Shown: positions 1,515-2,943 of the stretch, one piece after another | Numbering within the stretch: the stretch's first letter is position 1 | How the letters are laid out: the number at the start of each line of letters is the position of its first letter | NCBI RefSeq assembly: GCF_000009705.1 | Contig: NC_003272.1 | Location: 5,610,001-5,642,000, forward strand | Source of the DNA: Nostoc sp. PCC 7120 = FACHB-418 | Lineage (GTDB): Bacteria; Cyanobacteriota; Cyanobacteriia; Cyanobacteriales; Nostocaceae | DNA length: 32,000 nt | Reading direction: 5' to 3' | Program-made: the position numbers and the translations under genes | Notes under the pieces: model-generated | Told to the model about the DNA's origin: nothing | The model's input: the letters and a program-made list of their open reading frames with translations, nothing else | Database searches by the model: none

Positions 1515-1748
1515 TCTTTAAGCTAATGCACGTCTAAATTGCATAACTACTCATCAGGGCTGTTAACTGTCAAAAGATCTCATGATGGATTGTGTAACTT
1601 AAATAATTAAAATTTTATATAAAGCTTATTTAATTTTTCACTTAATTGTCTTAATAATCGTCGTTTCCCAATATTTTGTATTAGATTTGGCTAAATGCTG
1701 CATATAAAGCAGTTATTTGCTATATCTATCAAATTTTGGAGGAAAAAG

Positions 1749-2000
1749 ATGGACTCTCTAATTGGACAAATTGTATTATTTGCCGGAAATTTTGCACCAC
1801 ACGGCTGGGCATTATGTAATGGACAGTTATTATCTATACAAGAATACACTGCCGTATATTCTATTCTTGGCACGACTTTTGGTGGTGATGGTGTTCAAAC
1901 TTTCGCTCTGCCCAATCTGCCTATTGTTCCGGATACAGATGGAAAAGGCGAATCTCGATACATCATTTGCCTTTATGGAATTTACCCCTCCCGTTGGTAG
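1749..2000 (+). CDS. minimal phage tail collar domain protein (MdpB-like, PF07484-type), 83 aa
   Basis: MDSLIGQIVLFAGNFAPHGWALCNGQLLSIQEYTAVYSILGTTFGGDGVQTFALPNLP matches the collar-domain consensus (IGEIxxFAGNFAPxGWxxCxGQLLxIxxxxALFSLLGTxYGGDGxxTFALPDL). The C-terminal YIICLYGIYPSRW matches the usual terminal strand. GGAGG at 1738-1742 lies 6 nt before ATG 1749, so the track's 1695 start is a likely 5' over-extension. Confidence 0.8.
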   Translation: MDSLIGQIVLFAGNFAPHGWALCNGQLLSIQEYTAVYSILGTTFGGDGVQTFALPNLPIVPDTDGKGESRYIICLYGIYPSRW

Positions 2001-2175
2001 TAACCATAACCTACGCACCCAGGTCGTTGATTGAGAACGGCTATAGGGGCATAAGGGTTTTAAATATTTACACCCCTACACCCTTCTTATGCAAACCCTG
2101 GATGTTTCGTTTTCATAGGTAAGCCCTAATTTAATTTCACCTAGCTACTTAGCCATTTTGGTGAAAATATATATT

Positions 2176-2207
2176 AGACAAAATTTAAGACGTTTTGTCT
2201 GTTTTTA
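2176..2207 (+). terminator. rho-independent terminator after the tail-collar gene
   Basis: Arms AGACAAAA (2176-2183) and TTTTGTCT (2193-2200) form the stem, followed by GTTTTTA. Confidence 0.5.
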
Positions 2208-2310
2208 TGCAATCTATATATTGATTTATAAAAAATAAATTGTAAACATAATAATTAGTTTGCATACATTATCTCCTTGGGTTTAACCTTGGGAGAAAGG
2301 AGTAAGATAA

Positions 2311-2553
2311 ATGGCTAATATCGCAATCGATACACTACATCTTACAGGTTATGATTTGTTGTATGATGTTGACAGCTTTCTTGATAAACTATTTTATCAG
2401 GAAACGTCATCCTTAGGAGGTGGTTATTGGGGTAAATCTTACGGGTATAACTCCTTGTTTGGCGGTGGTTACTCAGGAAATAGTGGCTCTTATAATTCAT
2501 TTTCTGGCGGATTTTCTGGGCATGGTGGCTACTACAATAAATCCTGGTGTTAA
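2311..2553 (+). CDS. 80-aa Gly/Ser/Tyr-rich small peptide with an N-terminal leader ending in LGGG (bacteriocin/microcin-like precursor candidate)
   Basis: AAGGAG lies 7-8 nt upstream of ATG 2311. The protein has an acidic/hydrophobic N-terminal 38 aa (MANIAIDTLHLTGYDLLYDVDSFLDKLFYQETSSLGGG) and a low-complexity core (YWGKSYGYNSLFGGGYSGNSGSYNSFSGGFSGHGGYYNKSWC). No family was recognised. Confidence 0.6.
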   Translation: MANIAIDTLHLTGYDLLYDVDSFLDKLFYQETSSLGGGYWGKSYGYNSLFGGGYSGNSGSYNSFSGGFSGHGGYYNKSWC

Positions 2554-2851
2554 GCTCTAAATAAAGGAGCAGATTATCGTTTTATAACGATATTCGTAAA
2601 AAGAAAAAGCAGGAATTTTTCATATGATGCTAATAAAAGTGGCTCTTCAGTTCATTTTATGGAACAGAATAATAAATAAAACCCAAAGATAGCCTGTATT
2701 CATTGCTGTGACTGGGTTTTAAGTTTTTGAGCCTTTCTATAAAACTGTGATTTTAATGCTCCACCATAAAACCAACGCAAGAGCCATAAAAGTAAATTAG
2801 AATTATAAAGTTAACAACCTGGCAATTTCTATATTTAGATAAACTTTTGTT

Positions 2852-2890
2852 GAGAATAAAAATTCCCCAGTAAATAAAGTTTTGCTGGGG
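2852..2890 (-). terminator. rho-independent terminator downstream of tmk
   Basis: CCCCAG (2865-2870) pairs with CTGGGG (2885-2890). On the minus strand the hairpin is followed by AATTTTTATT. Confidence 0.55.
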
Positions 2891-2943
2891 CTGGATATAA
2901 ATAATCTAATGATTTTTCGATGACAAAATTATCAAACGACTGA

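Follow-up and report, generated by a model that had tools for sequence, protein, structure and literature searches.

Cyanobacterial MITEs have been described from Anabaena variabilis and from Nostoc sp., with lengths of ~130-170 bp for Nezha and ~154 bp for Muzha (PMC3184786), and STRR heptamer sequences are known in heterocystous cyanobacteria (PMC2670836). The leaders of cyanobacterial double-glycine precursors, which are class II microcin-like, have the published consensus ELX3E(I/L)X2(I/V)XG(G/A) (Wang et al. 2011, PMC3140520). Within the spacer between tmk and holB in Nostoc sp. PCC 7120 we find a MITE, a repeat element linked to a heptamer array, a gene for a double-glycine-leader peptide, and a solitary gene for a phage-tail-collar (Collar) domain. 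The window analyzed, meaning the whole stretch of DNA, comprises 32,000 nucleotides. We think it probable that the spacer is a lineage-specific patchwork of a Nostoc/Trichormus (PCC 7120-type) chromosome, built up through a number of small, independent events where tmk and holB were once adjacent.

The tmk-holB interval and its repeats

A previous reading of this DNA from its sequence alone, here called the sequence-only reading, identified holB and tmk on either side of a 1,429-nt gap (1515-2943), and its gene identities, coordinates and gap length are correct. The genes and the features that bear on their transcription and surroundings are:

552-1514, minus strand: holB, DNA polymerase III delta' subunit, 320 aa (NCBIfam PRK07399, E=2.6e-138; Pfam DNA_pol3_delta2, PF13177)
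1598-1748, no strand assigned: conserved divergent intergenic region, with putative holB and Collar promoters and 5' UTRs (hairpin 1697-1713; SD GGAGG 1738-1742)
2852-2890, minus strand: hairpin CCCCAG...CTGGGG followed by a T-run, the putative tmk terminator (from the fold of 2840-2950, minus strand)
2944-3579, minus strand: tmk, dTMP kinase, 211 aa (TIGR00041, E=1.2e-57; PF02223)
3591-3777, no strand assigned: 187-nt block upstream of tmk, outside the interval, holding a copy of CCCCTACACCC at 3640-3650

The gene pair had been described as conserved. Our survey covered 80 of 180 candidate Nostocales holB loci, each species being represented by one genome. In 23 of the 80, tmk is found upstream of holB, across gaps of 10-5,709 nt, many of which are 10-60 nt (Fortiea, Cyanocohniella, Roholtiella and Anabaena spp.). 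In 51 genomes the two genes are unlinked, with no tmk in at least 3 kb upstream of holB. Judged by gene order, the adjacency is ancestral in the Nostocales yet often broken, and it is not the rule in the order.

The suggestion that the interval is derived and variable agrees with gaps of 10-60 nt in diverse genera, and with the different subsets of its content held by the nearest relatives. In N. parmelioides the gap is 636 nt and contains the peptide gene only, with no Collar gene. T. variabilis has the peptide gene together with a remnant of the Collar upstream region, the Collar coding sequence having gone. Nostoc sp. CENA543 has a Collar orthologue (82% amino acid identity) and two unrelated genes, with no peptide gene, while in A. 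subtropica the gap is 57 nt and the peptide gene is found at an unlinked locus. The 187-nt block beyond tmk is 93% identical in T. variabilis and missing from N. parmelioides.

The spacer had also been taken to interrupt a housekeeping operon. The hairpin and T-run after tmk, the sequence of which is kept in N. parmelioides and T. variabilis, suggest rather that in this genome tmk and holB are transcribed as separate units. As tmk ends in its own terminator-like hairpin, holB would probably be transcribed from the conserved divergent region of ~150 nt that is common to it and the Collar gene. This region is 85-88% identical in CENA543 (throughout its length) and in T. variabilis (1598-1710 only). 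A scan for promoter-like sites performed no better than chance (10 sites, with 8.4 expected), and Rfam at gathering thresholds found no RNA family in the whole window.

The repeats of the interval are:

1516-1597, no strand assigned: 82-nt repeat element adjoining the holB start codon, delimited by alignment with relatives (further copy at 31227-31294)
2044-2085, no strand assigned: 42-nt imperfect hairpin repeat containing CCCCTACACCC at 2073-2083 (inverted copy at 3638-3679, 74% complementary)
2641-2786, no strand assigned: 146-nt MITE with terminal inverted repeats (arms 2640-2675 and 2751-2786)

The MITE is like Nezha and Muzha in having terminal inverted repeats, a length of 146 nt, a direct target duplication of 7 bp (TAAAAGT, at 2634-2640 and 2787-2793) and no coding capacity, and, as has been described for Nezha, the site that is occupied here is empty in T. 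variabilis. The likeness is one of hallmarks, with two copies in evidence. The second is indicated near kdpF by a same-species contig that diverges exactly at the right end of the MITE.

The 82-nt element is missing from T. variabilis, CENA543 and N. parmelioides, and related copies occur in metagenome contigs. The copy at 31227-31294 flanks a CAACAGT heptamer array (31112-31251), which we take to belong to the STRR sequences. It is STRR-like in that the conserved flank of the array recurs at 1516-1597; unlike STRR arrays, the copy adjoining holB has the flank with almost no heptamer array. This heptamer-array-linked element and the MITE would have been inserted later. Folding the 82-nt element and the motif-bearing hairpins gave z-scores of -1.5 to +0.7, which do not support structured RNA.

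The dispersed motif CCCCTACACCC that had been pointed out is real, with exact copies at 2073, 3640 (minus strand) and 21190. With up to one mismatch there are four matches where 0.27 are expected, and none of 100 shuffled sequences reaches four. The motif can be read as two tandem units of the octamer (C/T)TAC(A/T)CCC; short tandem units are a feature in common with the STRR heptamers, but here the unit is an octamer and there are two units only. Elsewhere, N. parmelioides contains a CCCCTAA/CCCCTAC run of greater length. Of 95 related loci only 10 have the motif, and most of these sites are orthologous. Short tandem repeats of this kind are common in the genomes concerned, and an octamer repeat of two units does not serve as the signature of a cassette. 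We also rejected a regulatory site, the three copies being inconsistent in position and orientation with respect to genes and having only the 11-mer in common. The 42-nt inverted repeats were rejected as the termini of a composite element, since it is the syntenic tmk that they bracket and not the two small genes.

The solitary Collar gene

The gene next to holB and the tract in which it lies are:

1749-2000, plus strand: solitary 83-aa "headless" phage-tail-collar-domain protein (Pfam Collar PF07484, E=1.4e-25)
1272-2005, no strand assigned: ~0.7-kb tract common to Nostoc sp. CENA543, comprising the holB 5' end, intergenic DNA and the Collar gene, and attributable to homologous recombination

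The sequence-only reading saw a minimal tail-collar gene with its own SD and terminator, of which the domain and the SD stand and the terminator does not. The protein scores 89.5 bits against PF07484, where the cut-off is 24, and covers profile positions 1-52 of 57. The SD lies 6 nt ahead of the ATG. No terminator-like site is called after the gene, and the fold of 1995-2125 (z=-1.5) is not significant. A longer open reading frame beginning at 1695 was considered and replaced by the 1749 start, giving 83 aa.

An AlphaFold2 model of the monomer, calculated with an MSA, has a pLDDT of 91.4. In Foldseek it matches best the short tail fibre gp12 of T4 and the tail fibre of cyanophage A-1(L), with a probability of 1.00 and TM-scores of 0.53-0.60 on the query for 5lye, 1ocy and 8kec, and a PDB profile search matches gp12 with E=1e-4. 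In sequence and predicted fold the protein is therefore like PF07484, T4 gp12 and the A-1(L) fibre (PDB 8kec). Unlike the phage fibres, its 83 residues comprise the collar strands only, with no shaft and no inserted head or receptor-binding domain. Unlike phage collar genes, it is solitary and chromosomal with no phage neighbours, and it is closest to a short cellular family. The product may form a small trimeric beta-structure of phage origin that has been kept by the cell. A PADLOC search of the protein found nothing.

The tract 1272-2005 is 83-98% identical to CENA543, compared with 68-80% for the rest of holB. The value of dS in holB for this comparison is 0.17 over codons 1-80 and 1.0-2.4 in later codons, and when CENA543 is compared with all three members of the clade it is 0.11-0.19 over codons 1-80 and 0.7-3.9 thereafter. 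The dip at the 5' end of holB is missing from 14 control genomes. The Collar gene has a dS of 0.35, where holB and tmk have 0.87-0.88, and not one of 500 bootstrap samples fell so low. The Collar gene would thus have reached, or come from, CENA543 on a tract of ~0.7 kb that included the first 240 nt of holB, the direction being judged from two outgroup comparisons only. A single transfer event for the Collar gene and the 5' end of holB is likely but not certain, because the dS of the Collar gene is greater than that of the holB 5' end. In this manner an accessory gene would be common to distant lineages of Nostoc, by way of homologous recombination that has its anchor in the essential holB gene. 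The Collar gene was probably present in the common ancestor of this species, T. variabilis and N. parmelioides, and would then have been deleted independently in T. variabilis and N. parmelioides.

The double-glycine-leader peptide gene

The peptide gene and its surroundings are:

2176-2200, no strand assigned: palindrome AGACAAAA-N9-TTTTGTCT upstream of the peptide gene, a candidate operator overlapping a candidate -35 box
2311-2553, plus strand: orphan double-glycine-leader peptide precursor, 80 aa (SD AAGGAG at 2297-2302, 8 nt before the ATG)
2311-2424, plus strand: leader, residues 1-38, ending in Gly37-Gly38
2425-2550, plus strand: Gly/Ser/Tyr-rich core, residues 39-80 (42 aa)
2554-2640, plus strand: structured 3' region with three hairpins (fold z=-4.0)

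A separately signalled Gly/Ser/Tyr-rich peptide had been proposed, and the 80-aa open reading frame on the plus strand with its AAGGAG confirms it. A profile search gathered 22 representatives and 241 clusters that have a common leader followed by hypervariable cores, and nearly all matches that carry a source name come from heterocystous cyanobacteria; 241 is a minimum for the clusters. The family leader reads MANIxIxxLxxxGxDLFxDSESFLNELxxQExxxIxGG, and the cores behind it are Gly/Ser/Tyr-rich, His-rich, Cys-rich or hydrophobic. This leader fits the consensus of PMC3140520, with its GG end, a hydrophobic residue at each of -4 and -12, and Glu at -8. In the window peptide these are G37-G38, L35 (-4), L27 (-12) and E31 (-8), and it departs from the consensus with Thr at -7, where a hydrophobic residue is expected and the relatives have I, M, L or V, and with Lys in place of Glu at -13. 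In an alignment of 24 sequences G37, G38, E31, L27 and L24 are near-invariant. Judged by its leader, the gene belongs, as an orphan, to a family of double-glycine-leader precursors that is specific to heterocystous cyanobacteria.

Relatives in Nostoc CHAB 5824 and Tolypothrix PCC 7910 are arranged as 5 or 6 tandem precursors adjoining cNMP-C39-ABC and HlyD/AprE genes. Some members of the family would be fed to cNMP-regulated C39 exporters whose genes lie with a conserved set of kinase, HopA1, aldo-keto-reductase and rotamase genes. The 32-kb window contains no C39 transporter, and its two ABC exporters lack a C39 domain. The family relatives look like bacteriocin precursors. For the peptide of the window, the 38-aa leader would be cut after Gly37-Gly38, a C39-peptidase ABC transporter with its gene elsewhere would export the 42-aa core, and the product would serve as a signalling peptide or one like a bacteriocin.

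The precursor thus corresponds to those of PMC3140520 in the GG leader, the hydrophobic and Glu positions, the hypervariable Gly/Ser-rich core and, in the family, arrays beside C39-ABC and HlyD genes. It differs in that it lies as an orphan at a housekeeping locus, the 32 kb around it containing no such exporter, and its 38-aa leader exceeds those of classical class II precursors in length. The leader family is neither NHLP nor Nif11. The window peptide has no significant curated Pfam or NCBIfam model, and family members give sub-threshold matches to the CTB family (E=0.0035) and BlpC (E=0.00027). PADLOC and PHROGs searches of the peptide found nothing.

The regions on either side of the gene are also conserved. 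The palindrome is kept in four of four orthologues, and the unlinked copy in A. subtropica is changed on both arms. Downstream, the fold of 2545-2640 has a free energy of -20.8 kcal/mol (z=-4.0), with 0 of 200 shuffled sequences as stable, and the 3' region is kept in T. variabilis up to the site of MITE insertion.

Origin of the spacer and its genes

The AT-richness noted earlier is real when the interval (33.8% GC) is compared with coding DNA (43%) or with the window as a whole (41.5%), but it lies within the norm of the other intergenic DNA of the window (mean 37.1%, with other long spacers at 32-35%). The Collar gene (41.4%) and the peptide gene (38.7%) are both close to the genomic value, so the AT-richness is that of non-coding DNA and not a foreign signature. 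A single horizontally acquired cassette, inserted as a unit with both small genes, could nevertheless be argued from the lower GC content, from the absence or shortness of the interval in many relatives, and from the 42-nt CCCCTACACCC repeat lying twice nearby in inverted orientation. We consider it highly improbable. The genes are found apart, with the peptide gene only in T. variabilis and N. parmelioides, the Collar gene only in CENA543 and the peptide gene unlinked in A. subtropica, and the blocks of homology differ in both boundaries and divergence. The inverted repeats bracket the wrong gene, the spacer has two separate small repeat or MITE insertions besides, and our search of open reading frames and scan for tRNA and tmRNA revealed no integrase, transposase, tRNA or att site; there is therefore no tRNA-linked integration. 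As each small gene is found without the other, a functional link between them was rejected. That the interval is instead ancestral and conserved in related cyanobacteria is scarcely credible. The same arrangement is found in several assemblies of the same species and the Collar gene also adjoins holB in CENA543, but 79 of the 80 other species have no Collar gene at this locus, several genera have gaps of 10-60 nt, and the similarity to CENA543 is explained by the local recombination tract. Across the Nostocales the interval with both genes is not conserved in all relatives. The content is accordingly accessory, as the sequence-only reading supposed, and it is variable and lineage-restricted, with both small genes dispensable, but it is not one cassette. 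The patchwork that we favour would contain at least five pieces with separate histories, namely the 82-nt element, the Collar gene, the peptide gene, the MITE and the tmk terminator.

Each of the small genes might be less than it appears. For the Gly/Ser/Tyr-rich frame, an intracellular glycine-rich disordered protein (GRP-like), or no real gene at all, is unlikely. The core is of low complexity, Pfam GRP is matched weakly (E=0.071), the window lacks an exporter and the dN/dS of 0.31-0.58 between orthologues indicates moderate constraint only. Yet more than 200 small proteins can be aligned with the first 38 residues of the frame and have the GG-ended leader alone in common, their C-terminal parts being unrelated, and such relatives are arrayed beside exporter genes. 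Four species moreover retain the reading frame, length and core pattern, A. subtropica with its unlinked copy among them. It is very unlikely that the Collar gene is a decaying prophage tail-fibre remnant without cellular function, even though the domain is one typically found in phage tail fibres (PHROGs matches and 787 phage records) and the gene was lost twice in sister species. Its dN/dS is 0.30 against the CENA543 orthologue with the SD conserved, and by this measure the gene is functional and subject to purifying selection. Its relatives are tightly conserved, complete proteins of 77-86 aa that are 55-82% identical and are spread through cyanobacteria, Acidobacteria, Bacteroidota and Nitrotoga in non-phage contexts. 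The best phage matches have 41-50% identity or less and lie inside fibre proteins of 387-1,018 aa, and the 32-kb window has no other phage gene, the neighbours of the Collar gene being holB, tmk and metabolic genes.

It is important that this AT-rich islet should not be counted as a horizontally acquired island. We regard it as the normal intergenic turnover of a repeat-rich Nostoc-type genome, which here takes the form of inserted MITE and repeat sequences, small orphan genes, deletions and a short tract of recombination. The Nostocales double-glycine-leader family is well delimited and has no curated model, and its exporter-linked clusters can be tested for secreted peptides. Orphan copies of the leader family, scattered in housekeeping loci, may move between loci. 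A search of the literature using guessed PCC 7120 locus tags found no papers.

More tentatively, the peptide gene may represent an unnamed, uncharacterised family, and the conserved subfamily with a Gly/Ser/Tyr ...WC core could serve filamentous cyanobacteria as a new secreted signal or as a microcin-like toxin. In the same speculative vein, the headless-collar mini-proteins, which have 55-65% identity between phyla, could form a cellular family that has a specific role, for example that of a phage-receptor decoy or of a lectin. One non-cyanobacterial mini-Collar gene has a DUF4760 neighbour. Proteins of the Collar kind are labelled 'microcystin-dependent protein' by some sources.

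The tmk-holB spacer

The genes on either side of the spacer are identified by profile matches as holB (DNA polymerase III delta′) and tmk (dTMP kinase), both on the minus strand, and they are separated by 1,429 nt, as the sequence-only reading had described. The plus strand of the spacer contains two small ORFs, which we term the Collar gene (a tail-collar-domain protein) and the peptide gene (a Gly/Ser/Tyr-rich peptide).

Features of the spacer and its flanking genes
552-1514, minus: holB; NCBIfam PRK07399 (E = 2.6e-138) and Pfam DNA_pol3_delta2
1515-2943: tmk-holB spacer, 1,429 nt
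1516-1597: repeat element, directly adjoining the holB start codon; absent from T. variabilis, CENA543 and N. parmelioides
1749 (ATG), plus: Collar gene, 83 aa; Pfam PF07484 (E = 1.4e-25); GGAGG at 1738-1742
2311-2553, plus: peptide gene, 80 aa; AAGGAG 8 nt upstream
2641-2786: MITE (small non-coding repeat), bounded by imperfect terminal inverted repeats of 36 nt; target site TAAAAGT duplicated
2944-3579, minus: tmk; TIGR00041 (E = 1.2e-57)

The spacer had been read as an AT-rich accessory cassette dropped into a housekeeping operon. Its GC content (33.8%) is indeed lower than that of the whole window (41.5%) or coding DNA (43%), but it falls within the intergenic range, with a mean of 37.1% for the remaining intergenic DNA of the window and 32-35% for other long spacers. 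AT-richness is therefore the norm for non-coding DNA in this genome, and is not an indication of foreign origin. The GC content of the Collar and peptide genes is 41.4% and 38.7%, respectively. There was no integrase or transposase among the ORFs examined, and tRNA and Rfam searches of the window returned no tRNA and no family.

Scanning the Nostocales with each species represented by a single genome yielded 80 holB loci. A same-strand tmk lies upstream of holB in 23 of these, with gaps of 10, 23, 23, 28, 56, 59, 98 and upwards to 5,709 nt; in 51 no tmk is found over a distance of 3 kb or more, and in six the flanking sequence is too short to judge linkage. Near-adjacent genes are found in Fortiea, Cyanocohniella, Roholtiella and several Anabaena species, so that adjacency was likely the ancestral state. 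In this order tmk and holB are not a strongly conserved operon. The content of larger gaps varies by genus, and includes a SnoaL-like gene, a ParDE toxin-antitoxin pair, a Uma2 nuclease, an S51 peptidase, a 1,385-aa cadherin-repeat protein and DUF1816, so that there is turnover at this site. The cassette reading holds only in part: the spacer content is accessory and variable, but it is a patchwork without foreign composition. The original observation was largely correct, and all the components are of known kinds, with nothing very surprising.

Assembly of the patchwork

Assemblies of the same species (L081-L086, among them GCA_014696735.1) show no differences from the window. T. variabilis (holB 98% identical in amino acids) carries the peptide gene, and the upstream region 1598-1710 adjoining holB, but has ~190 unrelated nt in place of the Collar coding sequence and lacks 1516-1597 and 2641-2786. 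A GCAGGG-type run lies within the substituted sequence. N. parmelioides (97%) keeps only 2168-2562, corresponding to the peptide gene, plus the flank 3′ of tmk, and also lacks 3591-3777. Nostoc sp. CENA543 (82%) has a Collar orthologue divergent from holB (82% identity in amino acids, and 86% in nucleotides over 1599-2005) and no peptide gene, and two other genes precede tmk. In A. subtropica the tmk-holB gap is 57 nt, and the peptide gene, together with 90 nt of upstream sequence, is found at an unlinked locus flanked by chemotaxis-type and SDR genes. From these patterns of presence it follows that the two small genes have separate histories. The deletion boundaries differ between T. variabilis and N. 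parmelioides, which indicates that the Collar gene was lost twice independently.

Synonymous divergence (dS) between the window and CENA543 stands at 0.88 in holB and 0.87 in tmk but drops to 0.35 in the Collar gene, a value reached by none of 500 bootstrap samples of 83 codons drawn from holB and tmk. Within holB, dS is 0.17 for codons 1-80 and 1.0-2.4 for later segments; over the same 80 codons T. variabilis and N. parmelioides give 0.11 and 0.19 against CENA543, and the dip was not seen in 14 other Nostocales comparisons. Nucleotide identity to CENA543 is 92-98% at 1272-1511 (the first ~240 nt of the essential gene holB), 68-80% in the rest of holB and 83-88% across the intergenic region and Collar gene, with homology stopping just past the Collar stop codon. 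This is the pattern of a short recombination tract extending from the holB 5′ end into the Collar gene. Over codons 1-80, dS to A. subtropica and A. azotica is about 0.59 for CENA543 and 0.53-0.60 for the window, and in the rest of holB CENA543 is much farther from these species. The simplest reading, in which we infer the direction, is that the CENA543 lineage would have imported a ~0.7-kb segment from the window's clade.

The MITE site is empty in T. variabilis. L085, a same-species metagenome contig, matches window positions 2223-2787 and departs exactly at the right end of the MITE, with kdpF/kdpA beyond in place of tmk. The junction points to another MITE copy that led to an assembly switch, or else to a real rearrangement. 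In size and behavior the element is like two MITEs known from A. variabilis and Nostoc, Nezha and Muzha (PMC3184786).

The element at 1516-1597 is 87% identical over 55 nt to 31227-31281. There, within 31112-31294, a conserved unit of ~55 nt (…TAAGCTAATRCRYGTCTAAATTGCATAACTACT…GTTAAC) borders an array of heptamers, (CAACAGT)n, at 31112-31251, and the unit is found again beside the holB start codon. Cyanobacterial metagenome contigs (L106, L108, L109 and L111) contain similar combinations of flank and heptamers. This suggests a dispersed element tied to arrays of short tandemly repeated repetitive (STRR) sequences, heptamer forms of which are typical of filamentous cyanobacteria (PMC2670836). 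The reported dispersed motif CCCCTACACCC does have three exact copies, and allowing one mismatch there are four against 0.27 expected. It parses as two tandem units of (C/T)TAC(A/T)CCC, and N. parmelioides has a longer run of such units.

Other short tandem arrays, of GCAGGGGA octamers and GGTAATG heptamers, lie at 9601-9640, 29133-29166, 15362-15381 and 29067-29100. A 36-nt near-perfect palindrome, CTAGATCCCCGACTTCTTGAAGAAGTCGGGGATCTAG, occurs three times (7488-7524, 23576-23613 and 27193-27231) in spacers just past the ends of long ORFs, as a dispersed hairpin of REP-like or terminator-like type.

Even where neutral sites are saturated, the region 1598-1748 has stayed conserved, and it probably carries divergent promoters for holB and the Collar gene. 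A hairpin (CCCCAG...CTGGGG) followed by a T-run lies 3′ of tmk on the minus strand (2852-2890) and is conserved in relatives. The terminator proposed 3′ of the Collar gene was not confirmed by a terminator scan or folding.

The peptide gene and its leader family

The peptide gene has its own translation signal as had been noted, and Gly, Ser and Tyr make up 29%, 21% and 17% of its C-terminal 42 residues. A word-indexed search gave only three close homologues; an exhaustive profile search gave 22 representatives, and a profile made from these reached 241 clusters. Many matches are metagenome sequences, and those with a named source belong almost exclusively to heterocystous genera (Anabaena, Aphanizomenon, Dolichospermum, Cuspidothrix, Nostoc, Tolypothrix, Scytonema and Aulosira). 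Searches with Pfam and NCBIfam models gave no significant match for the family.

Only the N-terminal ~38 residues are common to the family, MANIxIxxLxxxGxDLFxDSESFLNELxxQExxxIxGG. Past the GG the members are unrelated, being Gly/Ser/Tyr-rich, His-rich, Cys-rich or hydrophobic, with the core pattern of the window copy conserved within a small subfamily. The family leader fits the double-glycine consensus that Wang et al. 2011 (PMC3140520) quote, ELX3E(I/L)X2(I/V)XG(G/A), although the window copy departs from it at -7 (Thr) and -13 (Lys). Two genomes have five or six leader-family genes in tandem, adjoined by a cNMP-binding C39-peptidase ABC transporter and an HlyD/AprE-type protein.

Precursor-exporter clusters
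L100 (Nostoc sp. CHAB 5824), 3029-16954
L101 (Tolypothrix sp. PCC 7910), 10001-20210

These arrays also include a conserved kinase (APH/choline-kinase-like), a HopA1-domain protein, an aldo-keto reductase and PpiC-type rotamases, and are a candidate modified-peptide pathway. Some other leader-family genes are solitary, as in the window, where no C39 transporter is found within the 32 kb. The dN/dS of the peptide gene is 0.31-0.58. We conclude that it is an orphan double-glycine-leader precursor. The leader would be cut after G38, and the core exported via a transporter encoded elsewhere.

About 110 nt upstream of the peptide gene lies a palindrome, AGACAAAA-N9-TTTTGTCT (2176-2200), that all four orthologues share. 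Since it persists in the unlinked A. subtropica copy with changes in both arms, it may be an operator. The 3′ region of the gene (2545-2640) has an unusually stable fold (z = -4.0).

The Collar protein

The 83-aa ORF comprises nothing but the Pfam Collar domain, and its start at 1749 is supported by gene calls in other assemblies and the family alignment. AlphaFold2 with an alignment of 69 short homologues gave a model of pLDDT 91.4, for which Foldseek against the PDB returned, with probability 1.00, the T4 gp12 short tail fiber (5lye, 1ocy and 5iv5) and the cyanophage A-1(L) tail fiber (8kec). The gp12 matches were recovered also by profile search. The protein belongs to a tight family of 77-86 aa with the consensus MDxxIGxIxLFAGNFAPxGWAxCxGQLLxIxQNTALFSILGTTYGGDGxTTFALPNL...YIICxxGIYPSR, and 55-82% identity among members from cyanobacteria, Nitrotoga, Pedobacter, Holophagaceae and Paludibaculum; there are also relatives of 100-150 aa. 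Matches to phage do not exceed 41-50% identity and fall within large fiber proteins, and no phage-like neighborhood was found in the contexts examined. Set against the domain layout of gp12, the short proteins look like a collar without the head. The dN/dS of the Collar gene is 0.30. Our best guess is that the protein would be a small trimer that came from phage and has been retained by cells. Both this family and the leader family are uncharacterized, and may merit experiments.

A second conserved mini-Collar context (L096/L097 5001-5255; L098 377-628), in other cyanobacteria including Aerosakkonemataceae, has a DUF697 GTPase on one side and a mechanosensitive-channel gene on the other.

Elsewhere in the window, two features together suggest an origin from a genome of the PCC 7120 type. 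The minus strand at 17339-23512 encodes, one after another, GTP cyclohydrolase I, a CobW/COG0523 GTPase, a threonyl-tRNA synthetase paralogue, an FAD oxidoreductase and ALAD, an arrangement resembling the zinc-sparing Zur-regulated cluster of Anabaena PCC 7120. A crhC-like DEAD-box helicase lies at 13912-15309.
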